From a virus, in IMG/VR virus record IMGVR_UViG_3300027917_000023: DNA of 48,816 nt. One strand, written 5' to 3'. Position numbers and translations under genes: made by a program. The notes beneath the pieces were generated by a model. The model saw only the letters and a list, made by a program, of their open reading frames with translations, searched no databases and was not told where the DNA came from. Positions 33,185 to 48,816 of this stretch are shown here, piece after piece (position 1 is the first letter of the stretch; every line of letters starts with the position of its first letter).

Positions 33185-33199
33185 AGTTAACCCCCCCCC

Positions 33200-33751: not shown

Positions 33752-33793
33752 TATACCCCTCCTACGCTAAGATCCATATTATATTTGAGCAGA

Positions 33794-34543: not shown

Positions 34544-34556
34544 ATATTACTTTTGA

Positions 34557-35350: not shown

Positions 35351-35365
35351 TAGGAAATATACGAC

Positions 35366-36407: not shown

Positions 36408-36582
36408 TTGGATTGGGGCATTATTTGGTTCCTTCATCTTTTCAGCCATTGGATTATGTCCTGGAATGCATGATGACGACGATGAGCCCGAACGTTGTCC
36501 AGCAACTGGGTGGGTCATCACCAACACTGACGAAGATGGGAACGAATATACGATGAAAGATGGACCTGGCGGTACTAAATAA
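36394..36582 (+). CDS. Small membrane/acidic protein (62 aa)
   Basis: ORF with a hydrophobic N-terminus and a DDDDE stretch. Confidence 0.4.
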   Translation: MDFLDWIGALFGSFIFSAIGLCPGMHDDDDEPERCPATGWVITNTDEDGNEYTMKDGPGGTK

Positions 36583-36808
36583 TGCCAATGCGTTCCCGAT
36601 GTATTTAATGTGTCAGGTTCTGGTCAAATGTAAATAGGGTGGGATTTCCCACCACGTTCAGAGAGATTCTAAGAAGTGGAATTCAGACCCTTACAGCCCG
36701 AACGACTTAGGTCACGGCATTGGCTGCCAACAGGTAGCCCGTGTGTCGTGGCCGAGGTCGCGACGACCAAGATTAAAGGATATGATTCCTTTAATCAAGG
36801 CTCGGCAG

Positions 36809-36888
36809 GGCCGTAAGGGGTTAAGAACATTCTGGAAACCAATCAAGACCCCTTGCGGCCAACCGGCCTCAAGGGGTCTTGCTTTATT
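36809..36888 (+). promoter_or_regulatory. Attenuator-like element: intrinsic terminator hairpin with an overlapping, mutually exclusive upstream helix
   Basis: 36844-36855 (caagaccccttg) pairs perfectly (12 bp) with 36870-36881 (caaggggtcttg), followed by ctttatt..ttttt. But 36849-36860 (ccccttgcggcc) can instead pair 12 bp (one G-U) with 36809-36820 (ggccgtaagggg). Confidence 0.35.
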
Positions 36889-36898
36889 AGGACTTTTT

Positions 36899-36972
36899 GC
36901 GAGCATCGTTCAATGGTAGGACGTGAGACTTCCACTCTCAAAATGAGGGTTCGATCCCCTCTGCTCGCACCA
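36899..36972 (+). tRNA. tRNA-Gly (anticodon TCC)
   Basis: Acceptor gcgagca/tgctcgc. Anticodon arm tgaga-cttccac-tctca. T arm gaggg-ttcgatc-ccctc. 3' ACCA. Confidence 0.8.
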
Positions 36973-37014
36973 GGACAGACGTGGGATCTGGAGCGGTTTA
37001 GTCACCGTTAAGGA

Positions 37015-37040
37015 TACTCACGGCGGGTGAGGTGTTTTTT
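37015..37040 (+). terminator. Putative intrinsic terminator (weak stem) after tRNA-Gly
   Basis: ctcac-ggcgg-gtgag hairpin followed by gtgtttttt. Confidence 0.3.
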
Positions 37041-37187
37041 CTGTGCCTTTTGGGACCACCAGCGTTCACTCAAAAAAGGCACCGTGTTATGAAAGGACTC
37101 AGAAACGGGGACGCAAGGCGTGAGATTTGCTAGACTGGCACTTGGATCGCTGGTGCTCTCGTGGAGACCCAAGTAATAGCACGTTAT

Positions 37188-37263
37188 GGGCGTGTAGCTC
37201 AGTTGGGAGAGCGCTTGCTCGGCAGGCAAGAGGGCGTCGGTTCGATTCCGATCACGTCCACCA
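37188..37263 (+). tRNA. tRNA-Ala (anticodon GGC), with G3:U70
   Basis: Acceptor gggcgtg/cacgtcc gives G3:U70. D arm gctc-agttggga-gagc. Anticodon arm cttgc-tcggcag-gcaag (position 33 is C, unusual). T arm gtcgg-ttcgatt-ccgat. 3' ACCA. Confidence 0.75.
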
Positions 37264-37278
37264 GAAAGGAGGTGAAAG

Positions 37279-37377
37279 ATGTCAAGGAGAGCAAAGAAGG
37301 AGGAGAGGAACAGGCGTCGTAAGATGCAGAAGAAGGAAGAGGATGCTAAGAGGAAAGAGAAGAAAGCTAAAGACTGA
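37279..37377 (+). CDS. Tiny highly charged peptide (32 aa, MSRRAKKEERNRRRKMQKKEEDAKRKEKKAKD)
   Basis: Perfect SD aaaggaggtg 8 nt upstream of the ATG, wedged between two tRNAs. Confidence 0.25.
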   Translation: MSRRAKKEERNRRRKMQKKEEDAKRKEKKAKD

Positions 37378-37434
37378 GCTAGGTAGGAAGCTTTGGGCAA
37401 TCAGACAGAAAATTGCTTTAGAAAGGCATGGAAT

Positions 37435-37506
37435 GGGTCGCGCTCTGGGTAAGCGGGTCGGTCTCCAAAACCGACAGCCTGCGGGGTTCGATTCCTCGGC
37501 GGCCTG
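37435..37506 (+). other. tRNA-like element with a Trp-type (CCA) anticodon arm and canonical T arm but no convincing acceptor pairing; possible pseudo-tRNA
   Basis: D-like arm cgct-ctgggta-agcg. Anticodon arm tcggt-ctccaaa-accga. T arm cgggg-ttcgatt-cctcg. The 5' end does not pair with the 3' end. Confidence 0.25.
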
Positions 37507-37547
37507 TTAGAAATGGCTACGAATTTCTGGTGGATTCTAAAATTTAC

Positions 37548-37624
37548 GGCCCCGTAGCCAAATGGATGAAGGCACCGGATTACGAATCCGGCAATTGCAA
37601 GTTCGAATCTTGCCGGGGTCACCA
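37548..37624 (+). tRNA. tRNA-Arg (anticodon ACG)
   Basis: Acceptor ggccccg/cggggtc. Anticodon arm ccgga-ttacgaa-tccgg. T arm gcaag-ttcgaat-cttgc. 3' ACCA. Confidence 0.8.
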
Positions 37625-37758
37625 CGCTCTTGAGTGAGCGAGTTCTTTGACAATTATGGCCGTGGGTGCGCTTGCGGCAACGGGCCAAACGCGGCATGCG
37701 TGTCGTAGGCTCTGAAAGTAAGCATCCGGGCTAGGAGCAATCCTAGCCCTTATGGGGA

Positions 37759-37791
37759 CGGGCCGGGTAACTCCCGGCCCTCCCCTCCTTT
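37759..37791 (+). terminator. GC-rich hairpin (gggccggg-taact-cccggccc) followed by a C/T-rich tract; weak terminator candidate
   Basis: 8-bp GC stem, but the T-run does not start until 8 nt after the stem. A second hairpin gggctagg-agcaat-cctagccc lies at 37727-37748. Confidence 0.25.
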
Positions 37792-37817
37792 TACCTCCAA
37801 TAGATATTATCAAAGCT

Positions 37818-37893
37818 GGGGCAGTGGTGTAGTGGCTAACACACTGGCCTGTCAAGCCAGAGATCGCGGGTTCAAGTCCCGTCTGTCCCGCCA
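37818..37893 (+). tRNA. tRNA-Asp (anticodon GTC)
   Basis: Acceptor ggggcag/ctgtccc. Anticodon arm ctggc-ctgtcaa-gccag. T arm gcggg-ttcaagt-cccgt. 3' GCCA. Confidence 0.85.
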
Positions 37894-38346
37894 GGCCCAG
37901 AGATTTGGGTTCAAATCCCATGACCAGCAGGATGAGTAAGCCTGTTGTGATAGCTTAATCTGGTAAAGTGCTGGGCGTGATTACGAAGCCAGAAAATACT
38001 GGCACAATATAGAGAGAAACCGGAAGCGGGGGTTCGAATCCCTCCCATCGCAGGATGAATAAACCTGTTCGGGTGGCCTAGTCATGAGTTGGCTTGCAGA
38101 ATGAATAACTCTGCTTGGGGCTATACCTGGTGGTAGTTTAGCGGCAGAACGCCGGTTCGAAAATGAAGCCAGAGGCGCGGGTTCGATTCCCGCCTCCCCC
38201 CTCATCTAGAGGGCTAGGATGAGTAAGCCTACGCAGCGGGGAGTAGCTCAGTGGTAGAGCACTGGCTAAAAGAAAAGCCAGAGATAACCCCTGGGCAAGC
38301 AGTGGGATGAGTAAGCCCACTCAGGTAGGATTAACTCTGGCATTAA
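37894..38346 (+). repeat. Array of degenerate tRNA-like units (5' and 3' half-like pieces related to tRNA-Asp/Arg) separated by a conserved 13-nt motif GGATGAGTAAGCC (4 copies)
   Basis: Motif at 37930-37942, 38053-38065 (ggatgaataaacc), 38217-38229 and 38305-38317. Each is preceded by variable/T-arm/acceptor-3'-like sequence and followed by acceptor-5'/D-arm-like sequence (e.g. 38231-38262 cggggag-ta-gctc-agtggta-gagc-a-ctggc). No unit folds into a complete cloverleaf. Confidence 0.5.
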
Positions 38347-38421
38347 TCCGGCGTGGCCTAACGGAAAGGCGGCGAGCTGTTAACTCGTAAGATGGTGGTT
38401 CAACTCCACCCGCCGGAGCCA
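38347..38421 (+). tRNA. tRNA-Asn (anticodon GTT)
   Basis: Acceptor tccggcg/cgccgga (U1-A72). D arm gcct-aacggaa-aggc. Anticodon arm gcgag-ctgttaa-ctcgt. T arm ggtgg-ttcaact-ccacc. 3' GCCA. Confidence 0.75.
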
Positions 38422-38439
38422 ACCAGCGTGGTCCTCTAC

Positions 38440-38545
38440 AAGAATTTCAGACGTTCTCTTTGGGAGGTTGCAGGTTCGAGTCCTGTCCCCCGGATCATCC
38501 GGGGGTAGCTCAATTTGGTAGAGCGCTAGTCATTTTATTCTTGTT
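38440..38545 (+). other. tRNA 3'-half (T arm + acceptor 3' strand) joined through a 3-nt loop to a tRNA 5'-half (acceptor 5' strand + D arm): candidate circularly permuted tRNA or decayed tandem duplicate
   Basis: gcagg-ttcgagt-cctgt then cccccgga (38487-94), tca, tccggggg (38498-505), then ta-gctc-aatttggta-gagc-g-ctagt. The 8-bp acceptor complement forms a hairpin across the junction. Confidence 0.4.
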
Positions 38546-38646
38546 CAATGACCCGCATTTTTAATAATTTTTCATCGGGCTCCGCGCCGGACTTAGTCTC
38601 CATAAGTATTTTAATCATAGAATTACGTTAAGGACAAAAGAGGTGT

Positions 38647-38877
38647 ATGATGGTCAGGATCGGTGCCGTTGCGGGAACCGCTGCAGTAGCAGTAACATAC
38701 CTCATAATCTTCTTCATCATGTCTAACCTAGAGCGAAAGCATGGGCAGACACCTAACTCTGATTACATGGCAGGTGTATTGGGTGTGCTTCTGGCGTGTG
38801 GGGTTCTATTGATAGATCTAATCTTCTTCATCGTATGGATCGTGAGCAATTTTGGGGCGGTAGCTCAGCCTGGTTAG
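38647..38877 (+). CDS. Small two-TM membrane protein (paralog B of 35135..35350)
   Basis: 76-aa ORF MMVRIGAVAGTAAVAVTYLIIFFIM...LIFFIVWIV, with SD aaaagaggtg. Confidence 0.5.
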   Translation: MMVRIGAVAGTAAVAVTYLIIFFIMSNLERKHGQTPNSDYMAGVLGVLLACGVLLIDLIFFIVWIVSNFGAVAQPG

Positions 38878-38884
38878 AGCATAT
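38855..38884 (+). pseudogene. tRNA 5' fragment (acceptor + D arm, ggggcgg-ta-gctc-agcctggtta-gagc) with no downstream anticodon or T arm
   Basis: Canonical 5' third of a tRNA, overlapping the end of ORF 38647 and the RBS of ORF 38907. Confidence 0.35.
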
Positions 38885-38906
38885 GGTAAAACATTGGAGA
38901 TAACAA

Positions 38907-39119
38907 ATGAATATCATCCTACCATTCGAATCATTTCCTTTACTATACGAATCACGAACCAGGACCCTCAAAAATGGTCAGAAATACAGGATCATTATGT
39001 ATCGCAATGGACGCCAGAGAATAATCGGGTTCTACGTAAAAGATTATAATGATGGTTGGTGTGTCTCACATTCAATTGGCGTTACTAAAAACGACCTAAA
39101 ACGAATGTTAGAATGTTAA
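38907..39119 (+). CDS. Hypothetical protein (70 aa)
   Basis: ORF with SD ggagata. Confidence 0.45.
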   Translation: MNIILPFESFPLLYESRTRTLKNGQKYRIIMYRNGRQRIIGFYVKDYNDGWCVSHSIGVTKNDLKRMLEC

Positions 39120-39193
39120 TTGCCCCGTCGTCTAATGGTAGGACGCCAGGTTCTGGCCCTGGCAGTGAGGGTTCGAAACCTTCCGGGGCAACC
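39120..39193 (+). tRNA. tRNA-Gln (anticodon CTG)
   Basis: Acceptor tgccccg/cggggca (U1-A72). Anticodon arm ccagg-ttctggc-cctgg. T arm gaggg-ttcgaaa-ccttc. 3' ACCA. Confidence 0.8.
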
Positions 39194-39265
39194 AAATGGA
39201 TGTTGATTGCTTATAAATATGGCCTTGATTTTTTCCACTTTACTTCATATATCAGAGGGACAATT

Positions 39266-39619
39266 ATGGATAGAGAACCATGCAAACTAGTGGTAGCGTG
39301 GTTGCAAGAAAAAGGAGTACAAGCTTTTTTGTCCCCAAGTGGCTTGGCAATTCATAAAAACGGCAAACCAGTAGTGATGTTCATTATTGACTTAGATCTG
39401 AATTTAATCGTCGTATCGTCGCATAAAAAATTTATCAATCTATCAAGAAACTACGACTTAAATAATCCAGATAGTTTGCCAAATTTATACGACAGATTGG
39501 TAAGCCTGGGCTATCACAATTACAAGCCAACAGAACGCGACTATCACTATTGCTATGATAAAAACTTTGAAATTAGGTTAAACGGCAACGCAGAGCAAGA
39601 CGAATGTGGATACAAATAG
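39266..39619 (+). CDS. Small paralog-family protein (117 aa; C-terminal ...LNNPDSLPNLYDRLVSLGY...)
   Basis: ATG with SD agaggg. The ORF-track start 39113 overlaps tRNA-Gln and is rejected. Family motifs present. Confidence 0.55.
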   Translation: MDREPCKLVVAWLQEKGVQAFLSPSGLAIHKNGKPVVMFIIDLDLNLIVVSSHKKFINLSRNYDLNNPDSLPNLYDRLVSLGYHNYKPTERDYHYCYDKNFEIRLNGNAEQDECGYK

Positions 39620-39621
39620 GA

Positions 39622-39638
39622 GCGGTGGCGTAACGAGA
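39622..39638 (+). pseudogene. Truncated copy of the tRNA-Phe 5' end (gagcggtggcgtaacg), identical to 40047-40062
   Basis: A 17-nt exact match follows a TAG stop, exactly as at the intact tRNA-Phe. The downstream sequence does not fold. Confidence 0.4.
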
Positions 39639-39719
39639 TGGACGGGGCTTCCGGCAAGAACCTGCATGATCAGGATAGTTTCCAAAAATACTCAATTTTA
39701 TTGAAGAAGAACTGAATCC

Positions 39720-40046
39720 ATGGTAGAAATCGAAAGGTTGGTGATGGAGTTCCTTCGCGAGAAAGGATATTGGGTTATCCACGAACCCCGGTACAATAGG
39801 TTTCGGGTTATTAAAGTAACAAGAGGCGAGCATTTTGAAACACAAATATTATTGGCAATTTACACAATTGTTGGTGATAAAATATGTATAATGTACGCAA
39901 AATTTCACCCAAAGCCGTTTAGCATTTACAGCAAAGAAGATTTCGCTAAAATGCTCAAGTTTTTGAAACAAAGGGAACGCGATAGCGCAGATGTCATGCA
40001 TTCAACATCGACTGGCTGGGATACACAACACTACACAGCGGTATAG
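39720..40046 (+). CDS. Small paralog-family protein (108 aa; N-terminal MVEIERLVMEFLREKGYWV...)
   Basis: ORF. Its stop codon overlaps the first base of tRNA-Phe. Confidence 0.55.
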   Translation: MVEIERLVMEFLREKGYWVIHEPRYNRFRVIKVTRGEHFETQILLAIYTIVGDKICIMYAKFHPKPFSIYSKEDFAKMLKFLKQRERDSADVMHSTSTGWDTQHYTAV

Positions 40047-40121
40047 GAGCGGTGGCGTAACGGAAGCGCAGCGCACTGAAAATGCGCAGGTGATCGGGTT
40101 CGACTCCCTCCCGCTCCACCA
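40046..40121 (+). tRNA. tRNA-Phe (anticodon GAA)
   Basis: Acceptor ggagcgg/ccgctcc. Anticodon arm gcgca-ctgaaaa-tgcgc. T arm imperfect (tcggg-ttcgact-ccctc, 3 bp plus mismatches). 3' ACCA. Confidence 0.65.
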
Positions 40122-40216
40122 GATCCACCTGCTAAAAGTCTAACAGAAATAAAAAATGCTCAGTAAGATGCGCTCATAGATTCACAATGGAAGAAATTGA
40201 TTGCACAACACTTCGA

Positions 40217-40292
40217 GGGCGGGTAGCTCAGTTGGGAGAGCGTCTGGTTTGCAACCAGAAGGTCGTCGGTTCGATTCCGATCCTGTCCACCA
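40217..40292 (+). tRNA. tRNA-Ala (anticodon TGC), with G3:U70
   Basis: Acceptor gggcggg/cctgtcc gives G3:U70. D arm gctc-agttggga-gagc. Anticodon arm tctgg-tttgcaa-ccaga. T arm gtcgg-ttcgatt-ccgat. 3' ACCA. Confidence 0.85.
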
Positions 40293-40358
40293 GAGATGAG
40301 GTCTTCACACTTACAATCCTTCTACGTGACCTACATGGATATTATAGAATACATTTAT

Positions 40359-40445
40359 GCGTCGGCTGAGCATTGGCGAGCTCAAGTGGCTGTAACCCAC
40401 CCGCCCTTTGCGGCTTTGGGGGTTCGACTCCCTCCCGGCGCACCA
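40359..40445 (+). tRNA. tRNA-Tyr (anticodon GTA), class II with long variable arm
   Basis: Acceptor gcgtcgg/ccggcgc. Anticodon loop ctgtaac. Variable arm ~13 nt (cgccctttgcggc). T arm ggggg-ttcgact-ccctc. 3' ACCA. Confidence 0.7.
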
Positions 40446-40473
40446 GAATTGGCCCCCAGGCTCCATTATCTAC

Positions 40474-40618
40474 GGCTGGGGTTGAGTCGAGATGCTCGTA
40501 GCAGCTCGGCAGCGCATAAACTAGTGGGAGACACCGTTGAGACTCTGTTGAAACTCGACAGGTCGCTAAACCGGCCCCCTCAATGTTGTGACGCTTGCAC
40601 AAGCTATCGACCCCAGCC
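40474..40618 (+). ncRNA. Structured non-coding element (~145 nt) closed by an 8-bp helix
   Basis: ggctgggg (40474-81) pairs with ccccagcc (40611-18). Nested helices gtcgag/ctcgac and cgag-atg-ctcg. No plausible ORF. Sits between tRNA-Tyr and a tiny ORF. Confidence 0.3.
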
Positions 40619-40654
40619 AACCAGCGAAGACCTATTAGCGAAAGGAGGTGTCGA

Positions 40655-40726
40655 TTGAAGTGTACTTGCTACGACAGAGAACAAACTGCTGTTCCTTTGT
40701 GTCCAATACACGGTTCACCAATGTAA
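40655..40726 (+). CDS. Tiny Cys/His-containing peptide (23 aa, (M)KCTCYDREQTAVPLCPIHGSPM), TTG start
   Basis: Strong SD aaaggaggtg 6 nt upstream of TTG. Too short for any assignment. Confidence 0.2.
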   Translation: MKCTCYDREQTAVPLCPIHGSPM

Positions 40727-40802
40727 TCTTGGGGGTTGCGCATCCATAACACGCAAATGGGAGTTGTTCCACGACCAGCCACCCATTTATCATTAAAGGC
40801 CA

Positions 40803-40848
40803 CGAGTTTTGCAGACTCGCGTGGAAAGTTCGATTCCTTCAACTCTCA
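40803..40848 (+). pseudogene. tRNA 3'-part-like fragment (Ala-type anticodon arm cgagt-tttgcag-actcg + T arm) lacking a 5' acceptor
   Basis: Anticodon-arm and ttcgatt T-loop features are present, but there is no pairing 5' strand. Confidence 0.3.
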
Positions 40849-40852
40849 TAAA

Positions 40853-40926
40853 TGCCCCGTAGTGTAATGGAAGCACGAGCGGCTTTGACCCGCTTAGCGA
40901 AAGTTCGAACCTTTCCGGGGCAACCA
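40853..40926 (+). tRNA. tRNA-Gln (anticodon TTG)
   Basis: Acceptor tgccccg/cggggca. Anticodon arm agcgg-ctttgac-ccgct. T arm gaaag-ttcgaac-ctttc. 3' ACCA. Confidence 0.8.
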
Positions 40927-41115
40927 GATCACCCGAGCCACCGCTGGAAACAGAGGAAGGTCAGGACACCACTGCTTAAGGTGGGAGGGAATTTTCCCGC
41001 TTACCACCAAGGGTGCAATCTCAAGCAGGCTGAGAGTGTGAGCAGCTCTACGAAAGCCGGGTAGAGAGCAAAGATTAATGGTGGCATAGAACAGAATCCT
41101 GCCTACTGGGTGATC
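40927..41115 (+). ncRNA. Structured non-coding element (~190 nt) closed by an 8-bp helix
   Basis: gatcaccc (40927-34) pairs with gggtgatc (41108-15). Internal helices ggtgg/ccacc and gctctac/gtagagc. Contains ggaaggtcagg. Starts at the base after tRNA-Gln. Confidence 0.3.
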
Positions 41116-41175
41116 TTTGATATTAAAGTATTTTATTACTCGTTTATATGATTCACATCAAAACCTGATAACTAT

Positions 41176-41326
41176 GGGGAAGTAGCTCAACAGGATAGAG
41201 TTAGTATGGCGGACCTACATCTTGTAGTCCTATCTATCGGCTAGTGCAGATAGGCAACGCCAGATGGACGGACCGTCAGAATACCCCGTATGGGTGACGT
41301 GGGTTCGAGTCCCACCTTCTCCACCA
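41176..41326 (+). tRNA. tRNA-like element (151 nt) with canonical acceptor stem (G3:U70), D arm, T arm and ACCA end, plus a ~75-nt internal insertion in place of or within the anticodon region
   Basis: 5' ggggaag-ta-gctc-aacaggata-gagt. 3' gtggg-ttcgagt-cccac-cttctcc-a-cca. The 7-bp acceptor includes G3:U70. The insertion forms hairpins ggacctac/gtagtcc and cctatct/agatagg. A possible class-II-like variable hairpin ccc-gtat-ggg is present. Confidence 0.35.
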
Positions 41327-41623
41327 ATGGAAACAACAGAAATATTGAAAGAATTAATCGATGAGCTTGGATATCAAGCCATAATTTATGATCTCATACC
41401 GCATTGGATCGGCGAATGTTACCGAACTATTGATGTAATCAGCCCCAGTACGTGGCCACGCAATAACGTAATCGCTACTATCAAGGTTGACGGCGTCTTC
41501 ATACATATCTTTAAGCGTGTTCTCGGAGGCCGGGGGCGTATAGAATCTAGCCATCAGCTAAGTTTATACGAACCGGATTCATTCTGTAGAATAAAAGAAA
41601 TATTAGCTGAATTAAATGACTAA
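41327..41623 (+). CDS. Small paralog-family protein (98 aa; METTEILKELIDELGYQAI... / ...LSLYEPDSFCRIKEILAELND)
   Basis: ATG immediately follows the CCA of the upstream tRNA-like element (0-nt spacer, no SD). The ORF-track start 41264 lies inside the tRNA-like element and is rejected. Confidence 0.55.
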   Translation: METTEILKELIDELGYQAIIYDLIPHWIGECYRTIDVISPSTWPRNNVIATIKVDGVFIHIFKRVLGGRGRIESSHQLSLYEPDSFCRIKEILAELND

Positions 41624-43067
41624 AAAGAAACAAAAAGAACTTGATTTCATGAACGATCCACGGTACCATTACCAAAGGTCGCATGTGTCTGATGTCGTTG
41701 GAACGATCGATATTGATCGTTATCTCAAATGGTGTAAAGACAATGGATTCAAGGCTACCATATACAAAAGTTGGTTTGACATGAAGAAGGAAAAGTTGTA
41801 CATCGCCAGAAAGAAATGCGACGAAAAACTGTTGGCCAGAAGGAAATTCAAGAATCCAAGGAAAGCACTGGATCTCGTGTTCGACTCAGACATCGTCGGC
41901 GCTGACGCGGCGTACAAAAATTTATACTCTAGAATAAAAACACTCAACAAGAAAGACAAAACCAAGTTCAAAAAGCTTATTACACATATCTACAAACATT
42001 CTGATATCCTCAAAGACCCGCCGTTGATAACGGGACTCCTGAACATCATGAAGTGGGAGCCTTATTACATAAATCGCCCAACGGAGTGGATGCCTAAGAC
42101 ACATAACACAAGAAGACAATTTTCTGATTTGCTTAGGCATTCTTTCTGCAAATACGATGTGCCAAAATTCATGGACGAGGTGTGGTTCTCCGAATATGAC
42201 GGAGCAATAGCCGGAGCAATAGCTGCTGAACTCAAGAGGGAATGGTTCATTTTCATTGGCCAGGGAGGAAATCTTAGGAAGGCTAGGAAACTACCATTCG
42301 AGGTGACGAAGAAGATCGCGCATTATTTTATGCAGGCTCCTGGCAATTTTTCAGTTGAAAACGCACTAATATGGGGAGTCGTGCACAGCATGGGCGGCGA
42401 CAAACGAACCGTCGAGGGCATCCTCAGCACCAAAAGAAACGGACAGCTTAATCGACACAATTTCTGGGTAACGGTCTATAGATTCTTCGTCAACAACCCG
42501 ATGCTAGACACAGCCCAATACAACCCAATCGTCGACTATATCGATGCCATGAAATATCAACCGCAATATGAATGGACGGAACCAGGCATCAGAGTGGAGC
42601 GCCCGCCGATTCAGCCGAATTTTATGATGCGTGGAAGAACCGCTTTCTCGCTGTTAAGGCAAGTGGAAGCCTGGCATAAGAAACTCGGCAAAGAGAAGAA
42701 AGGTGGGAAACTACAATGGGAGAAGAGTAAGTATAATGGATTTGAGTGCCAGACCGGTGAAAGAAGGAACGTCAAAATTTGGACTATCAACGAATTGTTG
42801 TCAAGCGATGAGCTAATACAAGAAGGGAAAACAATGCGGCATTGCGTGGCGTCTTACGCTCGTTCCTGCCAGAGCCAAAGGGTCAGCATTTGGTCGATGA
42901 AGGTAGATACATGGGAAGGCAAGAAGAACGTACTGACCATCGAAGTCAGAGATGGAACAATCATGCAGGCCCGTGGCAAGAGAAACGAAAGACCCACAGA
43001 GGAAGCCAAGAACATCATAAAAAAGTGGAAGAAAACCCAAGGTCTCGGAATCAGTTCTTATATTTAA
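41616..43067 (+). CDS. PcfJ-like domain protein (483 aa)
   Basis: C-terminal region 'ELIQEGKTMRHCVASYARSCQSQRVSIWSM' resembles the conserved core of PcfJ-like proteins. This is an inferred family resemblance, not a search result. Confidence 0.45.
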   Translation: MTKKKQKELDFMNDPRYHYQRSHVSDVVGTIDIDRYLKWCKDNGFKATIYKSWFDMKKEKLYIARKKCDEKLLARRKFKNPRKALDLVFDSDIVGADAAYKNLYSRIKTLNKKDKTKFKKLITHIYKHSDILKDPPLITGLLNIMKWEPYYINRPTEWMPKTHNTRRQFSDLLRHSFCKYDVPKFMDEVWFSEYDGAIAGAIAAELKREWFIFIGQGGNLRKARKLPFEVTKKIAHYFMQAPGNFSVENALIWGVVHSMGGDKRTVEGILSTKRNGQLNRHNFWVTVYRFFVNNPMLDTAQYNPIVDYIDAMKYQPQYEWTEPGIRVERPPIQPNFMMRGRTAFSLLRQVEAWHKKLGKEKKGGKLQWEKSKYNGFECQTGERRNVKIWTINELLSSDELIQEGKTMRHCVASYARSCQSQRVSIWSMKVDTWEGKKNVLTIEVRDGTIMQARGKRNERPTEEAKNIIKKWKKTQGLGISSYI

Positions 43068-44707
43068 AACATATTCACAAGTACAGACGTTGTGAAAACC
43101 GAATCGTCATAATCAACTACTTCGCCATCTTTCACGATGACATAATATAGAGTATTGTCTGGCGGCACACCAAGCTTTGGGTAAAAATGCTCACCACCGA
43201 ATGCTGCGTCTTCATCGTGCGCAATAGGGGTGAAGTAAAATAATGCCTTAAAATTATTTGGGAAGTCGTAATTATGCCTAATGGTATTCAAAAAATCGGT
43301 TAACCCAGATGGTGGCTCACCGTCTCTGGTGCGCTCAAATGCCGAAGCAAACTCTTCTCTATATAATTTGTTGAGATCAGCTGTAGCATAGTCTAAACTA
43401 GTGAGCACACTAGTTAGCTTTGTCACCAACCCAGACTGCCCTTGGGCATGCAGAAACTCACGAGGTGTAAATGACGTACCCTTTGGTGCGTCAAGCACAT
43501 CTTCCATTTCTCTTTGTCTATATTCTCTGTATCTATACGTCTTTTGAGCTATATCCTTGGCTTCGTCCTCTCTGTCCTTGTAATTATCGTACGTAAATCT
43601 GATATCAAAATGCTTGACTTCTTCTTTTTCACCAGTAACTATCGTCATAAGTATCGTAAATACCGATGGATCCTTGAAAACAAGAGGAAAGTGAATATAC
43701 CACGGTTCATTACTATTTGGTGGTTCCGGATATGGTGCTACTTTAACAACCGTGGCATCCCCTTCTTCGTCATCGCCGTATGCGTCAGAGTATGCCATAC
43801 CATACATCTTGTCCCTGATGCCCGTCTCAAATCCTAGTTGCCCTTTGCTCTTAATCCAATCTCTAGCTATGCCTTCTAAGTTGTTTGTAGTATCTTCACC
43901 ATATGCTTCGTCTTCTGGCATTGCTTTGAATCTAACATCACCAGTTGCCGGATTTATAAACATAAATTTTCTTATCATTATCCTGGCGGTTGGATCTTGG
44001 ATACCTTGCTCCGGATGGATTCCATTTTTCCTAAGAACATCTTTCTTAACAAGATACATTATGAAACCACCACACATTATTTCATACCATGCCTTGGTTG
44101 CTTCTCTTATATTAGTACATGATGTCCACCCTCGGTCTTCGCTCATCCTTAGAATATCAACTGGGCTTTTGGAGACTATAACCCAATAATCATTTGGGTT
44201 GACAATTTCTCTGTGCTCAAAATCATCTGCCATCCGTTGTAGGTGCTCTTGATAATTTTCGTAGTTTATACCTTCCATTTCACCATCAACAAATTTTCCG
44301 CCATATTTGTCTACATACCCATATGTGAATAAATTCTTTTCATGTGGCTTCTTAGCTTTTCTCAGTATTTTACCGATTCTTAGCAGATTGCCTCTATAGT
44401 TAACATAACCCTTAATAAGATCAACACCACCAAGCCCAACAGCATATTCAAGTGTGTCTTCCAGCCTCTCCAACCAAATAGTTCTTTCGACAGCTGGTTC
44501 GGCATCAAACTCCTTTATTAAAACCCTATCTTCATCAATCTTATTTGGATCATTCTCAAACCATTCATCAAAGACAGACTGATCGCGTGCTAGCCTATAG
44601 AGGGTGTGAAGCTCTTCCTTGCTGAGATCCTCAAGGATAGGGTCAACAAGAAAGCTGACGTATTCTGGGTCAACCATCTCCCTTATATTTTCCAGAAAGT
44701 ATTTCAA
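43064..44707 (-). CDS. Large hypothetical protein (547 aa), encoded opposite to the surrounding island
   Basis: Long ORF. 'KYGGKFVDGEMEG' weakly resembles a ligase/nucleotidyltransferase KxDG motif, but this is unproven. Confidence 0.55.
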   Translation of the reverse strand: MKYFLENIREMVDPEYVSFLVDPILEDLSKEELHTLYRLARDQSVFDEWFENDPNKIDEDRVLIKEFDAEPAVERTIWLERLEDTLEYAVGLGGVDLIKGYVNYRGNLLRIGKILRKAKKPHEKNLFTYGYVDKYGGKFVDGEMEGINYENYQEHLQRMADDFEHREIVNPNDYWVIVSKSPVDILRMSEDRGWTSCTNIREATKAWYEIMCGGFIMYLVKKDVLRKNGIHPEQGIQDPTARIMIRKFMFINPATGDVRFKAMPEDEAYGEDTTNNLEGIARDWIKSKGQLGFETGIRDKMYGMAYSDAYGDDEEGDATVVKVAPYPEPPNSNEPWYIHFPLVFKDPSVFTILMTIVTGEKEEVKHFDIRFTYDNYKDREDEAKDIAQKTYRYREYRQREMEDVLDAPKGTSFTPREFLHAQGQSGLVTKLTSVLTSLDYATADLNKLYREEFASAFERTRDGEPPSGLTDFLNTIRHNYDFPNNFKALFYFTPIAHDEDAAFGGEHFYPKLGVPPDNTLYYVIVKDGEVVDYDDSVFTTSVLVNMF

Positions 44708-44712
44708 TAAAT

Positions 44713-45072
44713 ATGGAGATACATGACTTAATTGCTGAAGCGTTAAAGGATTTAGGCCACACAGAGATTCTAAAGAGTGGAAAGATTAGAGTCACTACTG
44801 GTATAGGATCTGCCAGATTCAAAATAACCGATATGAAATTCACGTGCTGTTCAGCAACTACTGACGCTGGCAATACACTTGAAATAGATCTGCATGAACC
44901 AGACAGCATAAGAAAAGTCGCAATAATGGTACTAAAATGTTTACATCGTCGTCATGCTTGGGATATCTATTACTTGCCATGCTCATCATGCCCATTTAAT
45001 CTAGAATCTAAAAATGGGCCAGTGATCGCATCACCAGAAAGACACCTTAGAAATAATCCAAATAAATTATGA
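44713..45072 (+). CDS. Small paralog-family protein (119 aa; MEIHDLIAEALKDLGH... / ...IDLHEPDSIRKVAIMVLKCL)
   Basis: ORF with family N- and C-terminal motifs. Confidence 0.55.
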   Translation: MEIHDLIAEALKDLGHTEILKSGKIRVTTGIGSARFKITDMKFTCCSATTDAGNTLEIDLHEPDSIRKVAIMVLKCLHRRHAWDIYYLPCSSCPFNLESKNGPVIASPERHLRNNPNKL

Positions 45073-45389
45073 AAGACATAGAAATAATTGTGCTGGCCAT
45101 AAACAAAATGGGTTACAGAATACGCAGTACAACCCGAAACAGTAGCAACGACGACATTGTAGTGTCGCTCGAAGGCTTCAATGACGAAACTGAATATAGG
45201 TTTGTTTCAATCACAGTTAGAGGTTCAAGACTCAGGCTATCTAACTGCCAATACGAAATAGACCTGTGTGACCCTGATAGCCTTAGGCTCCTAAACAAAG
45301 CAATCGACTATCATGGAACATTGCCTAAAAATTATTCGTGCAGCAAATGCCCGTTAAATATTTATTTGATTGGCACTACGTTCATGTAA
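45069..45389 (+). CDS. Small paralog-family protein (106 aa; MKDIEIIVLAINKMGY... / ...IDLCDPDSLRLLNKAIDYHG)
   Basis: ORF overlapping the previous gene by 4 nt. Family motifs present. Confidence 0.55.
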   Translation: MKDIEIIVLAINKMGYRIRSTTRNSSNDDIVVSLEGFNDETEYRFVSITVRGSRLRLSNCQYEIDLCDPDSLRLLNKAIDYHGTLPKNYSCSKCPLNIYLIGTTFM

Positions 45390-45391
45390 AT

Positions 45392-45463
45392 GCGGCTATG
45401 GTGTAATGGTAACACGTCGGTCTGCCAGTCCGGAGATGCTGAGTTCGATTCTCGCTAGCCGCT
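45392..45463 (+). tRNA. tRNA-Gly (anticodon GCC)
   Basis: Acceptor gcggcta/tagccgc. D arm gtgt-aatggta-acac. Anticodon arm tcggt-ctgccag-tccgg (4 bp plus a 31:39 mismatch). T arm 4 bp (tgag-ttcgatt-ctcg). No encoded CCA. Confidence 0.6.
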
Positions 45464-45465
45464 TA

Positions 45466-45538
45466 AGGTCAGAGATCCGGGTTCAAATCCCGGCGGTACC
45501 GGCCATACTGTAGCTTAACTTGGTAGAGCGCTGGCCAC
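45466..45538 (+). pseudogene. tRNA fragments: 3'-half-like (gtcagagat-ccggg-ttcaaat-cccgg-cggtacc) followed by a 5'-fragment gtagcttaacttggtagagcgctggcc
   Basis: The 5' fragment is near-identical to 38506-38532. The 3'-half resembles the fragment following tRNA-Asp at 37894-37930. Confidence 0.3.
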
Positions 45539-45540
45539 GA

Positions 45541-45614
45541 GTCCCTGTGGTGTAACGGTAGCACGGCACTCTGATAAGGTGTAGGCGAAGGTTCAACTCC
45601 TTCCAGGGGCACCA
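45541..45614 (+). tRNA. tRNA-Ile (anticodon GAT)
   Basis: Acceptor gtccctg/caggggc. D arm gtgt-aacggta-gcac. Anticodon arm gcact-ctgataa-ggtgt. T arm gaagg-ttcaact-ccttc. 3' ACCA. Confidence 0.8.
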
Positions 45615-45926
45615 ATGAACGAATGTGAAATGATAGCAAAAGAGCTACGAATCCATGGCGTCAAAGCGTTCTATAACGACGAACATATGTTTGGGATAAT
45701 CAAACCGCACACGCCAATGTATAGCAGTAGCAAATACGGAGATAGTGGCTTCGGGAGGTTGGTCACATTCACGGTTAAGGATGGGATAATAATCTGCTCA
45801 GATAAAGACCGGATTTATAATTTACACGAACCAAGATCATTGGGTCAGCTCATAAAGTCAATCAAGTTGTGTGAACAAAGGACAAGTTGCCATCAAAAAT
45901 GCGAGTTTAAAAGCCGAAATATGTGA
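45615..45926 (+). CDS. Small paralog-family protein (103 aa; ...IYNLHEPRSLGQLIKSIKLCEQ...)
   Basis: ATG directly abuts the CCA of tRNA-Ile (0-nt spacer, no SD). Confidence 0.55.
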   Translation: MNECEMIAKELRIHGVKAFYNDEHMFGIIKPHTPMYSSSKYGDSGFGRLVTFTVKDGIIICSDKDRIYNLHEPRSLGQLIKSIKLCEQRTSCHQKCEFKSRNM

Positions 45927-46200
45927 AATCTTGGAGAAGTCGCTTATATACCACGGCTTTGTCGTCGTATGGAGTGACAACAGCCTCGGGCCCTATATAA
46001 TTTATAAGCAACAATCATCCCTTATTGGTGGGAAAATAGTTGATTCTTTCCCGCATGGCACGGTGCACATAATTATTGATAATTTAGTGTTAAATAGATT
46101 CCCATCCAACCACACAGTGCCAGCAAAAATACCACTTGCCGATCCGGATTGCTTCAATAAAGCAGTTGAATTTATAGTATTTGACAGGTTGCGATTGTAG
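45871..46200 (+). CDS. Small paralog-family protein (109 aa; ...PLADPDCFNKAVEFIVFDRLRL)
   Basis: ORF. Its last codons and stop (ttg cga ttg tag) form the 5' acceptor of tRNA-Gly(CCC). Confidence 0.5.
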   Translation: MNKGQVAIKNASLKAEICEILEKSLIYHGFVVVWSDNSLGPYIIYKQQSSLIGGKIVDSFPHGTVHIIIDNLVLNRFPSNHTVPAKIPLADPDCFNKAVEFIVFDRLRL

Positions 46201-46261
46201 TTCAATGGTAGAACATGAGCTTCCCACGCTCAAGACGGCGGTTCGATTCCGCTCAGTCGCT
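46191..46261 (+). tRNA. tRNA-Gly (anticodon CCC)
   Basis: Acceptor gcgattg/cagtcgc. D arm gttc-aatggta-gaac. Anticodon arm tgagc-ttcccac-gctca. T arm ggcgg-ttcgatt-ccgct. No encoded CCA. Confidence 0.75.
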
Positions 46262-46264
46262 TCA

Positions 46265-46339
46265 GGTGGCTGTAGCTCAGTGGTAGAGCGTCGGGTTGTG
46301 GCCCCGAAGACGGCGGTTCGATTCCGCTCAGTCGCCCCA
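46265..46339 (+). tRNA. tRNA-His (anticodon GTG) with encoded G-1 and C73
   Basis: g-gtggctg/cagtcgc. D arm gctc-agtggta-gagc. Anticodon arm tcggg-ttgtggc-cccga. 3' half (agacggcggttcgattccgctcagtcgc) identical to tRNA-Gly(CCC). 3' CCCA. Confidence 0.85.
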
Positions 46340-46366
46340 GATGATTAGTGAAAACTTTCTATTTGA

Positions 46367-46453
46367 TTGCAGAGAAGACGCACAAAGCTGAATCTTTATG
46401 ACCCAGAATCATTACCACACTTATTGAGAGCAATTAAGAATGGCAATCGATGA
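46367..46453 (+). pseudogene. Remnant of a paralog-family gene: C-terminal 28 codons only (...KLNLYDPESLPHLLRAIKNGNR*)
   Basis: The family C-terminal motif reads in frame after a stop codon with no start. It overlaps the start of the intact copy at 46440. Confidence 0.3.
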
Positions 46454-46826
46454 TGGTTATATAATTTATGGCAACAAAACCATTATATGCAACAGTACTA
46501 AAACACCGAATTATACGGTTTCCCAGTTATACAAATGGTTGTCACACACGTGGAATGATGACAACGCATTAAGCAGGCAAGAAGTAGCTAGTTTGATAAC
46601 CGCATGGTTGTCAGAGAAAGGCTATAATGTTAGAGTTGACAGCCAATGTGGCTGGTCGTTAAACATTGTCAATGGAAACAACAAAGCGAATTTGTATGTC
46701 GAGTCAAACGCTGTGACGATAGAAGTCGATACATATAATAAGATCAAAAGCTATAATCTATATAATCCAGATAGCCTGCAGAAAATATTAGAGCATATAA
46801 GTGTTCTCGGAAGCGGCATGAAGTAG
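46440..46826 (+). CDS. Small paralog-family protein (128 aa; ...SYNLYNPDSLQKILEHISVLGSGMK)
   Basis: ORF with family motifs, including internal 'WLSEKGYNV'. Confidence 0.55.
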   Translation: MAIDDGYIIYGNKTIICNSTKTPNYTVSQLYKWLSHTWNDDNALSRQEVASLITAWLSEKGYNVRVDSQCGWSLNIVNGNNKANLYVESNAVTIEVDTYNKIKSYNLYNPDSLQKILEHISVLGSGMK

Positions 46827-46844
46827 TGGTTGAGGACGGCTCCA

Positions 46845-46919
46845 CGGGCCTTAGTGAAGTTTGGTTATCACGCCACATTTGGGATGTGGAGAGCGCGGGT
46901 TCGACTCCCGCAGGCCCGA
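46845..46919 (+). tRNA. tRNA-Pro (anticodon TGG) with C1:G72 and A73
   Basis: Acceptor cgggcct/aggcccg. D arm gtga-agtttggtta-tcac. Anticodon arm ccaca-tttggga-tgtgg. T arm gcggg-ttcgact-cccgc. No encoded CCA. Confidence 0.8.
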
Positions 46920-46925
46920 TCAATC

Positions 46926-46999
46926 CGCGCCGTGGCCTAATTTGCTAAGGCACCCGGTTCGGGTCCGGGGGATTGCTGGTTGGAATCCAGTCGGCGCGA
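46926..46999 (+). tRNA. tRNA-Pro (anticodon CGG) with C1:G72 and A73
   Basis: Acceptor cgcgccg/cggcgcg. D arm gcct-aatttgcta-aggc. Anticodon arm cccgg-ttcgggt-ccggg. T arm gctgg-ttggaat-ccagt. No encoded CCA. Confidence 0.8.
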
Positions 47000-47076
47000 T
47001 TAGTAGGAGAGACGGCAATGAAACCGCTCAGAAATGTCCAACAGCCCTGAATAATTGCCACAATGACAACCTAATC

Positions 47077-47152
47077 GCCCCCGTAACTCAATGCACAGAG
47101 TAACCGGCTTCTATCCGGTAAGTTGCAGGTTGAAATCCTGCCGGGGGTACCA
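47077..47152 (+). tRNA. tRNA-Arg (anticodon TCT)
   Basis: Acceptor gcccccg/cgggggt. D arm actc-aatgcaca-gagt. Anticodon arm accgg-cttctat-ccggt. T arm gcagg-ttgaaat-cctgc. 3' ACCA. Confidence 0.8.
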
Positions 47153-47190
47153 GAAATGACGGTCGAATATTGCATTTGAATGTGCGGTCA

Positions 47191-47571
47191 ATGGTTTGGA
47201 ATAATGGGAAATTCTTGACTTCTTCACCTACGAAGTATGCTTCCCTTGGCTTTAAATTTACATTGGCAGAAGAACACAAGCTAATAACAACTGTGCTGCA
47301 TGAATTGCAAAATCATTTGCGTACATCTTTACCACTCGGCTACCAATTCTGCTACATCGTAAAGCACGCAGATGAGTCCTGGTTTGAAATGTTTTGTGTA
47401 GTAAGAACAGATTACAACCATCACTGGCGAGTGCGTATCACAATCAGCGGCAATATTATCATAGAGATGGATGGCACACGGACGTACAAATCGACCATAG
47501 CCAATCCAAATTGCTTTGAAGAGATAACTGAACTAATCTGCCATAATGAAGCCAAACAGCTTAGAACATAA
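47191..47571 (+). CDS. Small paralog-family protein (126 aa; ...EHKLITTVLHELQNHLRTSLPLGY... / ...STIANPNCFEEITELICHNE)
   Basis: First ATG in frame. The ORF-track TTG start 47170 is less likely. Family motifs present. Confidence 0.5.
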   Translation: MVWNNGKFLTSSPTKYASLGFKFTLAEEHKLITTVLHELQNHLRTSLPLGYQFCYIVKHADESWFEMFCVVRTDYNHHWRVRITISGNIIIEMDGTRTYKSTIANPNCFEEITELICHNEAKQLRT

Positions 47572-47794
47572 AATCATGGTCGAAGCAGCGTTGAATATCC
47601 GAGATTTACTCGAAGTATGCTTGCCAGAAAATTTTGAATGCGGCCAAATCCACAGCCGCACGGGTCGCTGCGGATACGTTAAATTCATGGTGATACCAGA
47701 CGTAAATTTCGGCGGTGGATATATGGTTGTAATAAAAGATGGCGTCATAAACGTGTATTTCGGGGAGAGGCATGCATTACCAACAGCAGCATGA
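47546..47794 (+). CDS. Small hypothetical protein (82 aa), possibly a divergent family member
   Basis: ORF overlapping the previous gene by 26 nt. Confidence 0.4.
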   Translation: MKPNSLEHKIMVEAALNIRDLLEVCLPENFECGQIHSRTGRCGYVKFMVIPDVNFGGGYMVVIKDGVINVYFGERHALPTAA

Positions 47795-48071: not shown

Positions 48072-48205
48072 TATTTGGCGACACCATCCTTAAGTTATTC
48101 AAACACAAGCGCATTGAAATCTTAGGAATGTCAGGCAACCGAGTTAATTTTCACACAGTAACCAATTCGTGGCCAAGGATCAAATTAGAATCTTCAGTGG
48201 CGTCC

Positions 48206-48679: not shown

Positions 48680-48816
48680 GATATTCTCCTCTTGGCATCA
48701 TGTTAAAATAGTGATGAGGTCACGGCCTTTGGTCCAGATAGATCCATACCCTAGTTGGACGCTATGATATTATCATTCAGAACATTTCGTCAAGTTAAAA
48801 GATAAATTGAGATTCG

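Follow-up and report, generated by a model that had tools for sequence, protein, structure and literature searches.

A minimal RNase P RNA of bacterial type A descent within the tRNA array of an uncultured jumbo phage

The ribozyme RNase P RNA trims precursor tRNAs. Its bacterial type A form (rnpB, Rfam RF00010) is 340-420 nt long, and bacterial enzymes deprived of the specificity domain (S-domain) bind substrate with lower affinity (PMC4919922). The isolated bacterial catalytic domain (C-domain) cuts pre-tRNA with or without RnpA, and engineered C-domain constructs do so with reduced rate and affinity (PMC4919922). An RNase P RNA that naturally lacks the S-domain is the type T or type P RNA of Pyrobaculum, of about 200 nt (Lai et al. 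2010, via PMC4919922 and PMC13462272). Among viruses, a camelpox virus RNA is said to resemble RNase P RNA but has no activity (PMC3001073). The tRNA clusters of T4, T5 and jumbo phages contain many same-strand tRNA genes with small interspersed ORFs, and the large structured noncoding RNA GOLLD sits in a phage-derived cluster of 32 tRNAs (PMC6582537). YrlA-like RNAs are also known in phages (PMC4201824). Two reviews of jumbo phages (PMC7824862, PMC13282480) make no mention of RNase P.

The window analysed here is the whole 48,816-nt stretch of IMG/VR record IMGVR_UViG_3300027917_000023, and its tRNA array resembles these phage clusters in having many same-strand tRNAs with small ORFs among them. 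A preliminary description had placed about 18 tRNAs at 36899-47152. ARAGORN finds 18 in this interval, all on the plus strand: the 17 recognized by eye, each with the same anticodon, plus a tRNA-Trp(CCA). With covariance models, 16 of the 18 exceed the Rfam tRNA gathering score (53-71 bits, threshold 29), and the array thus consists of 16 solid and two doubtful tRNAs. Thirteen encode the 3' CCA: Gly(TCC) (36899-36972, 66.5 bits), Ala(GGC) (37188-37263), Arg(ACG) (37548-37624), Asp(GTC) (37818-37893), Asn(GTT) (38347-38421), Gln(CTG) (39121-39194), Phe(GAA) (40046-40121), Ala(TGC) (40217-40292), Tyr(GTA) (40359-40445), Gln(TTG) (40853-40926), Ile(GAT) (45541-45614), His(GTG) (46266-46339) and Arg(TCT) (47077-47152). 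CCA is not encoded in Gly(GCC) (45392-45463), Gly(CCC) (46191-46261), Pro(TGG) (46845-46919), Pro(CGG) (46926-46999) or Trp(CCA) (37434-37507). The first 17 nt of tRNA-Phe are duplicated at 39619-39635, within a 20-nt direct repeat at 39616 and 40043.

The two doubtful cases are unusual in structure. In Tyr(GTA), the variable arm is long (class II), the D stem has 3 bp and the anticodon stem contains one mismatch; this tRNA matches only tRNA-Sec in Rfam (22 bits). Trp(CCA) is an atypical tRNA-like element with an 8-bp acceptor, a weak D arm and a 6-bp anticodon stem, and its top Rfam match is also tRNA-Sec (30.5 bits, E 0.011). The identity elements are as first described: G3:U70 in both tRNA-Ala (with A73 in the GGC isoacceptor), G at -1 (46265) and C73 in tRNA-His, and C1:G72 and A73 in both tRNA-Pro. 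Because the array, anticodons and identity elements are correct, it is a reasonable inference that the phage tRNAs would be charged by host synthetases.

Upstream of the array are genes for tail sheath, baseplate, tape measure, ribonucleotide reductase (RNR), primase and helicase. Positions 31616-47789 of the window are 100% identical to a 261,688-bp ENA contig in which at least six further tRNAs continue the array. The region is one stretch of a long plus-strand tRNA array in an uncultured jumbo myovirus whose genome spans at least 262 kb, and the array is probably split into several transcription units.

The preliminary description also reported many fragments between the tRNAs. Fragments are indeed present, but Rfam covariance models show that several are other structured RNAs rather than mere debris, and these were the most interesting content overlooked: a minimal RNase P RNA, Y-RNA-like mimics and an alanine-identity tRNA-like RNA. 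The first, at 40926-41116 on the plus strand, is a 191-nt RNA with the catalytic domain only. It matches Rfam RNaseP_bact_a end to end (model 1-367) at 66.5 bits, against a threshold of 100, with E values of 1e-18 to 4e-20; its own covariance model gives 201.9 bits. In the alignment, a 110-nt S-domain block and P18 are deleted, and CR-I, J5/15 GCAA, L15 (CCGGGUAG), CR-IV (AGAUUAAUG) and CR-V are aligned.

Like type A RNA, the phage RNA has P1 (40926-40934/41108-41116), P2, P3, P5, CR-I (40953-40967), P4 (40958-40966/41097-41104) with its bulged U (40961), the P6 pseudoknot (40972-40977/41040-41045), J5/15 GCAA (41015-41018), P15 with the L15 GGU (41060-41062), the pairing partner of the tRNA 3' RCCA, P16/P17, CR-IV and CR-V (41091-41105). 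The active-site and CCA-binding elements are thus retained. Unlike type A RNA, it has a 35-nt stub, made up of a 5-bp P7-like helix (40980-40984/41004-41008) and a small hairpin, in place of the specificity domain (P8-P14, CR-II/III). It also lacks P18, and P3 is cut to 3 bp and a tetraloop. Three P4 pairs are swapped, and reading of the sequences shows that these double compensatory changes are the sole differences from the bacterial P4 consensus. Engineered minimal RNase P constructs keep the same parts but are laboratory deletions, whereas the phage RNA belongs to a natural family maintained by selection. The Pyrobaculum RNA likewise keeps the catalytic domain with nearly all of the specificity domain gone; however, as an archaeal RNA it functions with proteins of the Pop5/Rpp30/L7Ae type, and it lacks both the bacterial L15 GGU and P6. 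Because the phage RNA is clearly derived from bacterial type A, its reduction was independent of that in Pyrobaculum. The camelpox virus RNA comes from a eukaryotic virus and shows loose structural similarity only, whereas the homology of the phage RNA is unambiguous in both sequence and covariation.

Thirty distinct relatives, with 34 to 65% GC, were gathered; the viral and metagenome contigs that carry them reach 525 kb. Standard pairs occupy 95.6% of pair positions (one sequence by one base pair; n=30), compared to 34-43% in controls with slid partners. Both sides change in compensatory fashion in 40 of 52 pairs, and none of 500 shuffles reached the observed values. The P6 pseudoknot, which was left out of the model used to align the family, is 93% paired with compensation at every pair, and RNAalifold independently finds P1, P2, P3, P5, P7, P15, P16 and P17. 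The L15 GGU is invariant. The invariance of P4 within the main family is an artefact of its use as the search pattern; two further phage mini-versions (L148, L149) carry a bacterial-type P4, and so P4 covaries within phages.

A same-strand tRNA array surrounds the RNA in about 25 of 41 loci, with array spacers of 3-6 nt. In about 16 loci its start lies 0-2 nt 3' of a tRNA, and in eight its end lies 3-5 nt ahead of the next one. In one subclade (L019, L051, L113, L137, L121, L125) the flanks covered contain no tRNA. Encoded CCA is uncorrelated with the presence of the RNA: some phages have it in nearly all of their tRNAs, others in none. Genuine matches are confined to viral and metagenome contigs, with none among 185,579 bacterial and archaeal species genomes; two matches in that set lie within coding DNA and are due to chance. 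Every family member falls below the Rfam threshold. Rfam has no model of the family, and a search of the freely accessible literature found no report of it, so the term unreported is provisional. From sequence comparison, we conclude that this is a conserved family, seen in phage contigs only, that derives from bacterial type A RNase P RNA.

Several other array RNAs are permuted tRNA mimics resembling bacterial Y RNA. The element at 38437-38548 has the same order of parts as YrlA (RF02553), namely outer stem, T arm, 7-bp closed acceptor (CCCCCGG/CCGGGGG) and D arm. It aligns to the full model but scores below threshold (44.5 versus 69 bits, E 2e-8), and the ORFs scanned and the gene table of a 21-kb contig stretch contain no Ro60/Rsr (TROVE) gene. 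A partial module at 38176-38260 (33.5 bits, E 3e-5) runs from T arm to an acceptor with a 37-nt closing loop to D arm. A smaller one (45464-45540; partial match, 27.1 bits, E 0.027) fills the gap between tRNA-Gly(GCC) and tRNA-Ile(GAT) with a closing stem (GGUCAG/CUGGCC), T arm, short closed stem and D arm; both the closing stem and the T arm form in its minimum-energy fold.

The alanine-identity RNA (41176-41326; G3:U70, A73, CCA) scores 35.9 bits as tRNA and 31.7 as tmRNA. It has normal D and T arms, a predicted branched rod of roughly 72 nt in place of the anticodon arm, and ends resembling tmRNA; ARAGORN makes no tmRNA call, only a poor forced intron model. In another tRNA-like element (37944-38052, 30.2 bits), the anticodon region carries an insert of 45 nt and the acceptor stem has two mismatches; again ARAGORN gives only a forced intron model. 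Four hairpins interleaved with the tRNA-like pieces (37925-37947, 38050-38069, 38213-38233, 38301-38321) share the 9-nt loop AUGAGUAAG on stems that differ but compensate. The spacer 37625-37817 is strongly structured (fold z-score -4.9) and holds a GC-rich, terminator-like hairpin followed by a U-run (37754-37792). All of these are on the plus strand.

Protein genes in the array include a PcfJ-like gene (41616-43067, plus strand; PF14284, E 3e-15) and a 547-aa ORF (43064-44707) that has no family match and is the sole long minus-strand gene. Between the tRNAs, from 39266 to 47571, are at least nine small plus-strand ORFs, recognized as paralogs by shared motifs and alignment (39266-39619, 39720-40046, 41327-41623, 44713-45072, 45069-45389, 45615-45926, 45871-46200, 46440-46826, 47170-47571), with a further member upstream of the array (35898-36407). 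The family has no match in Pfam or PHROGs. Its confident alpha-beta5-alpha structure model has no significant match in the PDB.

What might the minimal RNase P RNA do? On balance, the phage most likely encodes its own pre-tRNA-processing ribozyme, working with host RnpA. The RNA and the tRNAs most likely share a transcript, from which the tRNA-processing machinery excises the RNA, because position 40926 is both the final base of the tRNA-Gln(TTG) CCA and the first base of P1, and relatives end just before the next tRNA. We assume a host-encoded protein partner because neither the window nor 42 related loci contain an RnpA-like gene. We infer that the RNA is transcribed, excised, bound by RnpA and catalytically active; the assembled RNase P would most likely remove 5' leaders from phage pre-tRNAs and tRNA-like RNAs. 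Efficient activity is not guaranteed, since S-domain loss lowers the affinity of bacterial enzymes for substrate.

A rather unlikely variant is that the ribozyme is active but has the unusual array RNAs, not ordinary tRNAs, as its real substrates. Loss of the T-loop-measuring S-domain would widen specificity, and the enzyme would cut the tightly packed junctions between tRNAs, the closed acceptor stems of Y-RNA-like elements, tRNA-like RNAs or phage mRNAs. Consistent with this variant, the window contains YrlA-like modules with a 7-bp closed acceptor, and RNase P cuts M. smegmatis YrlA, which has a stem of this kind (PMC4201824); the narrow spacers of related arrays and the tRNA-less subclade point the same way. 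However, YrlA-like elements were undetected in six other large arrays carrying the RNA, and standard tRNAs are its most constant neighbours.

We consider it improbable that the RNA is a non-catalytic decoy or regulator that has kept its RnpA-binding core to sequester host RnpA or to compete for pre-tRNA, with the result that maturation of host tRNAs is shut down or processing is re-routed. The missing S-domain, the lack of a phage protein partner in the loci searched and the inactive camelpox virus precedent would all suit a decoy. Yet a decoy needs no P4 bulged U, CR-I/CR-V, J5/15 GCAA, L15 GGU or P6 pseudoknot, and in the 30 sequences each of these is either invariant or preserved by compensatory change, despite the wide range of GC content. 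Sequestering RnpA would also hurt maturation of the phage's own tRNAs, at least 24 in number. Finally, it is most improbable that this is an ordinary tRNA array strewn with decaying remnants of captured host genes and duplicated tRNAs, the RNase P-like stretch among them: the tRNA-Phe 5' duplicate (39616-39635), an isolated T-arm (37894-37929), a tRNA 5' half (38854-38890) and the mismatched-acceptor element at 37944-38052 do look like debris, but for 40926-41116 this is excluded by conservation and abundant compensatory change across many unrelated phage contigs.

For the array as a whole, the preliminary description suggested codon-usage compensation and/or replacement of host tRNAs cleaved by anticodon nucleases. 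Every Gly, Ala, Pro and Gln codon is readable by the phage tRNA set. Of the phage Arg codons, 77% are AGA or AGG, and the array has a tRNA-Arg(TCT). This codon reading is better fitted by a near-complete replacement set than by supplementation of a few rare codons. If the phage does process its own pre-tRNAs, its tRNA supply would not depend on how much host RNase P RNA is present during infection, or on what becomes of it.

The tRNA array of the window comprises 18 tRNA genes in the ARAGORN output, all on the plus strand between 36899 and 47152. Each of the 17 tRNA species named in the preliminary description was reproduced with an identical anticodon, and the extra call is a Trp(CCA) candidate at 37434-37507. 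Sixteen of the 18 pass the Rfam tRNA covariance model, scoring 53-71 bits against a gathering threshold of 29. Two candidates are called by ARAGORN alone: Tyr-GTA, whose long arm is of class II and whose D stem spans 3 bp, and Trp, in which the acceptor has 8 bp, the anticodon stem has 6 bp, the D arm is weak and CCA is lacking. The identity elements are also as first described (G3:U70 in both Ala tRNAs, G-1 and C73 in His, C1:G72 and A73 in both Pro), and together with the 18 genes and their Rfam scores they confirm the array. It can fairly be inferred from these elements that host synthetases would charge the phage tRNAs. CCA is encoded in 13 of the 18 genes.

All codons for Gly, Ala, Pro and Gln can be read by the tRNA set. 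A tRNA-Arg(TCT) is also present, and AGA and AGG account for 77% of the phage's Arg codons. This composition fits a broad replacement set, although a choice between codon compensation and replacement of cleaved host tRNAs, as suggested earlier, would depend on the host. A related phage array (locus L114, 571-644, minus strand) contains an amber-suppressor-type tRNA with anticodon CTA, labelled Pyl by ARAGORN, which hints at stop-codon recoding in that phage.

The remaining pieces of the array had been described as tRNA fragments. That holds for some of them, which look like debris (for example, the duplicated 5' end of tRNA-Phe at 39616), but others are structured RNAs, including a homologue of RNase P RNA. 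In a permissive Rfam scan, window positions 40925-41121 align end to end to bacterial type A RNase P RNA at 66.5 bits (E 1e-18 to 4e-20), which is under the Rfam gathering threshold of 100 for that model. The alignment retains P1, P2 and a tiny P3; CR-I (GAGGAAGGUCAGGAC); P5 and the GCAA of J5/15; P15 with CCGGGUAG, including the GGU of L15; CR-IV (AGAUUAAUG); and CR-V (ACAGAAUCCUGCCUAC). In bacteria, the L15 GGU pairs with the 3' RCCA of tRNA (PMC4919922). CR-I and CR-V pair to form the P4 helix, which by direct reading of the sequence is AGG(U)CAGGA / UCCUGCCU, with 8 bp and a bulged U; compared to the bacterial consensus AAG(U)CCGGG / CCCGGCUU, the bulged U is kept and there are three double compensatory changes. 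The P6 pseudoknot between L17 and J5/7 can be formed as CUGCUU/GAGCAG. In contrast to bacterial type A, the specificity domain (S-domain; P8-P14 with CR-II and CR-III) is absent, 110 model positions being replaced by 15 nt in the Rfam alignment with only a 5-bp helix and a hairpin as remnant, and P18 is deleted. The 191-nt element (40926-41116, plus strand) is accordingly classified as a bacterial-type RNase P RNA that is naturally cut down to the catalytic domain (C-domain) and carried by a phage.

Relatives of this mini RNase P RNA were gathered from IMG/VR and JGI metagenomes by means of the CR-I and CR-V motifs. Chance accounted for most of the 106 viral matches to the 15-mer CR-I motif, and a match was retained only if CR-V was also present. 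Loci L107 and L108, with CR-V only and a weak model score, were discarded as chance, as were L117, L122, L142 and L143, which are chance matches in coding DNA. The resulting family consists of 30 distinct sequences with 34-65% GC, from contigs that reach 476 kb and 525 kb. Nine of the sequences were used to build a covariance model, and this model matches all 40 copies with 74-210 bits. Scores against the Rfam model (threshold 100) are 37-77 bits for every member, and annotation at the gathering threshold therefore misses the whole family. When the same pattern was run over 185,579 bacterial and archaeal species, one genome each, the only two hits were chance matches in coding DNA, and a sensitive blastn search of 50,697 deposited phage genomes with the mini RNase P RNA gave no match.

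The secondary structure of the family is strongly supported by covariation. Standard pairs occupy 95.6% of pair positions (one sequence at one base pair) in the family alignment, versus 34-43% in a control where the 3' partners were slid by 1-3 columns, and none of 500 shuffles attained the observed values. Changes on both sides were found in 40 of the 52 pairs, among them all pairs of P1, P2 and P5 and two of the three pairs of P3, with 93-99% of pair positions in these helices paired; P15 also covaries across the family. The P6 pseudoknot lay outside the model used for the alignment, which could not include it, and it is 93% paired with compensation at every position. RNAalifold independently yields the same helices, including P1, P2, P3 and P5. 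The GGT of L15 and the GCAA of J5/15 are invariant.

The invariance of P4 in the main set simply reflects its use as the search pattern. When short-spaced versions with a bacterial P4 were scanned for separately, two more phage contigs were recovered, of 124 kb (L148) and 191 kb (L149). Each has an RNA of about 200 nt with a bacterial-type P4 inside a tRNA array (680-884, minus strand, in L148; 10596-10798 in L149). The P4 of these RNAs is AAG(U)CCGGA / UCCGGCUU, and so P4 covaries too and the minimal form is not restricted to one sequence family. A further relative (L094, 4369-4742, minus strand) is 374 nt long, with a partial S-domain and a P18-like insert. It may be an evolutionary intermediate, and what it retains suggests that the reduction was stepwise. 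We regard it as all but certain that the element in the window is a true homologue of RNase P RNA and that purifying selection acts on it.

In most loci of the family the RNA sits in a tRNA array on the same strand, with 28 tRNAs in three cases (L058, L134 and L140), 27 in L139, 22 in the array adjoining the longer L094 RNA and 19 in L127. In about 16 loci its start lies 0-2 nt past the 3' end of the upstream tRNA, and in eight its end lies 3-5 nt short of the next tRNA; in the window, the first base of P1 is the A of the CCA of tRNA-Gln(TTG). Such a layout would be expected of an RNA that is cut out of a polycistronic precursor, one of its ends being made by tRNA 3' processing and the other by RNase P cleavage. 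In one subclade the flanks that were fetched contain no tRNA, and the neighbors are ThiF-like, methyltransferase and Lar-like genes. The idea that arrays with the RNA always encode CCA to match the L15 GGU was not supported, the encoding of CCA being all-or-none by phage. A phmmer search of the window and 42 related loci, using approximate RnpA query sequences, revealed no RnpA-like ORF, and the ORFs flanking the RNA gave no Pfam hit to RnpA. The protein subunit is presumed to be supplied by the host.

The mini RNase P RNA has kept its active-site parts and those that bind the acceptor stem, the CCA end and (in bacteria) the protein subunit; it has lost the S-domain, which reads the T and D loops. 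On its own, a bacterial C-domain can cleave pre-tRNA whether or not RnpA is present, albeit less efficiently, and the domain missing from the phage RNA has also been lost naturally in Pyrobaculum (PMC4919922). The best explanation, which we regard as somewhat more probable than its competitors taken together, is that the phage would provide a compact catalytic RNA, that this RNA would borrow host RnpA, and that the two would mature the phage's own tRNA precursors. We infer along these lines that the RNA is transcribed, excised, partnered with host RnpA and active. A rival explanation is that the RNA is a ribozyme specialized for unusual substrates. The proposal that it is a non-catalytic sponge for RnpA fits poorly, as the catalytic and substrate-binding elements are strictly conserved.

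Several other structured RNAs lie within the array. The segment 38437-38548 aligns to the full YrlA model, with the outer stem, the T arm, a 7-bp loop-closed acceptor and the D arm, and two shorter modules have the same permuted order (38176-38260 and 45464-45540). The three elements score 44.5 (the full-length one), 33.5 and 27.1 bits, all under the Rfam gathering score of 69. Phages are known to carry YrlA-like RNAs, and the M. smegmatis YrlA is an RNase P substrate by virtue of its 7-bp closed acceptor (PMC4201824). Neither the array ORFs nor the genes tabulated for the 21-kb contig stretch include a Ro60/Rsr (TROVE) gene.

Another RNA, at 41176-41326, has a perfect alanine-type acceptor (GGGGAAG/CUUCUCC, with G3:U70, A73 and CCA) and normal D and T arms, and a branched rod of about 72 nt, with small hairpins, replaces the anticodon arm. 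It shares with tmRNA a tRNA-Ala-type domain with G3:U70 and a CCA end, but the resemblance is confined to the ends (31.7 bits versus an Rfam threshold of 47), and the assignment to tmRNA was rejected since there is no tag frame (ARAGORN calls no tag). The intron mode of ARAGORN only forces poor anticodon stems on this segment and on 37944-38052, and therefore neither is an intron-bearing tRNA. Four hairpins between 37925 and 38321, each located between tRNA-like pieces, share one 9-nt loop (AUGAGUAAG), and their stems differ in sequence with compensating changes; they may serve as a signal for processing or protein binding. Two GC-rich, ORF-free spacers fold unusually stably and may be further non-coding RNAs: 37625-37817 (z -4.9), which ends in a terminator-like hairpin at 37754-37792, and 40446-40852 (z -2.85). 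A scan for promoter and terminator consensus sequences gave matches not above the shuffled expectation.

The spaces between tRNA genes also contain at least 10 small paralogous ORFs of about 100 aa (window 39266-47571 and 35898-36407), and others are found in a related locus (L146, 19900-21115). They have in common an N-terminal motif, 'L..L.E.GY', and a C-terminal one, 'x-L-x-x-P-D-S-L'. Searches placed them in no Pfam or PHROGs family, and a high-confidence AlphaFold model (pLDDT 88) has an alpha-beta5-alpha fold, for which the PDB offers no significant neighbor. An exact 20-nt direct repeat, ATAGGAGCGGTGGCGTAACG, at 39616-39635 and 40043-40062, contains the tRNA-Phe 5' end, and each copy comes after one of two adjacent small ORFs. 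This arrangement suggests that an ORF cassette was duplicated, or inserted, at the tRNA gene.

The genes around the array are of the myovirus type (tail sheath, baseplate wedge and hub, tape measure, RNR, primase and helicase). An exact-protein look-up showed that window 31616-47789 is 100% identical to part of a 261,688-bp ENA metagenome contig, and the source is therefore a jumbo phage. The array continues in that contig with tRNA-Glu, Val, Thr, Met, Cys and Thr and two class-II-like candidates. The last kilobase of the window (47768-48816), which includes a minus-strand ORF with a response-regulator domain, does not adjoin the array in the 262-kb contig and matches two separate contigs of about 1 kb; an assembly junction or a strain variant lies at the shared 22 nt (47768-47789). 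By tail sheath, the nearest isolates are Bacillus phage SP-15 and Listeria phage LIS04, with only about 40% identity over less than half of the protein. The whole array had no megablast match in the 50,697 deposited phage genomes, no relatives were found through the PcfJ-like protein (41616-43067, plus strand) and the 547-aa protein (43064-44707, minus strand) encoded within it, and the collections searched contain no close relative of this particular phage.

Full-text literature searches, covering papers open without subscription, returned no report of a phage-encoded RNase P RNA. In a history of RNase P from 2024, phages figure only as suppliers of tRNA substrates (PMC11143913), and two jumbo-phage reviews make no mention of RNase P (PMC7824862, PMC13282480). 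The only viral precedent found is the RNase P-like RNA of camelpox virus, which is inactive (PMC3001073). We consider it an even bet that large phages carry an RNase P ribozyme of their own that would be the first catalytically competent one from a virus, the smallest natural one of bacterial type, free of the S-domain and excised from tRNA operons by tRNA punctuation.

RNase P RNA is usually seen as a universal, essential ribozyme of cells. On the practical side, the sub-threshold Rfam scores mean that current annotation pipelines overlook these phage RNAs. If the proposal is correct, tRNA 5' processing would join the translation functions brought by jumbo phages, and the fast maturation of 20-30 tightly packed phage tRNAs would be accounted for. 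The roughly 30 natural sequences would then define the smallest bacterial catalytic core that evolution tolerates, and they would bear on the long-running question of the purpose of the S-domain. For the phage itself, such a ribozyme may give independence from the host in tRNA maturation, or relaxed substrate rules.
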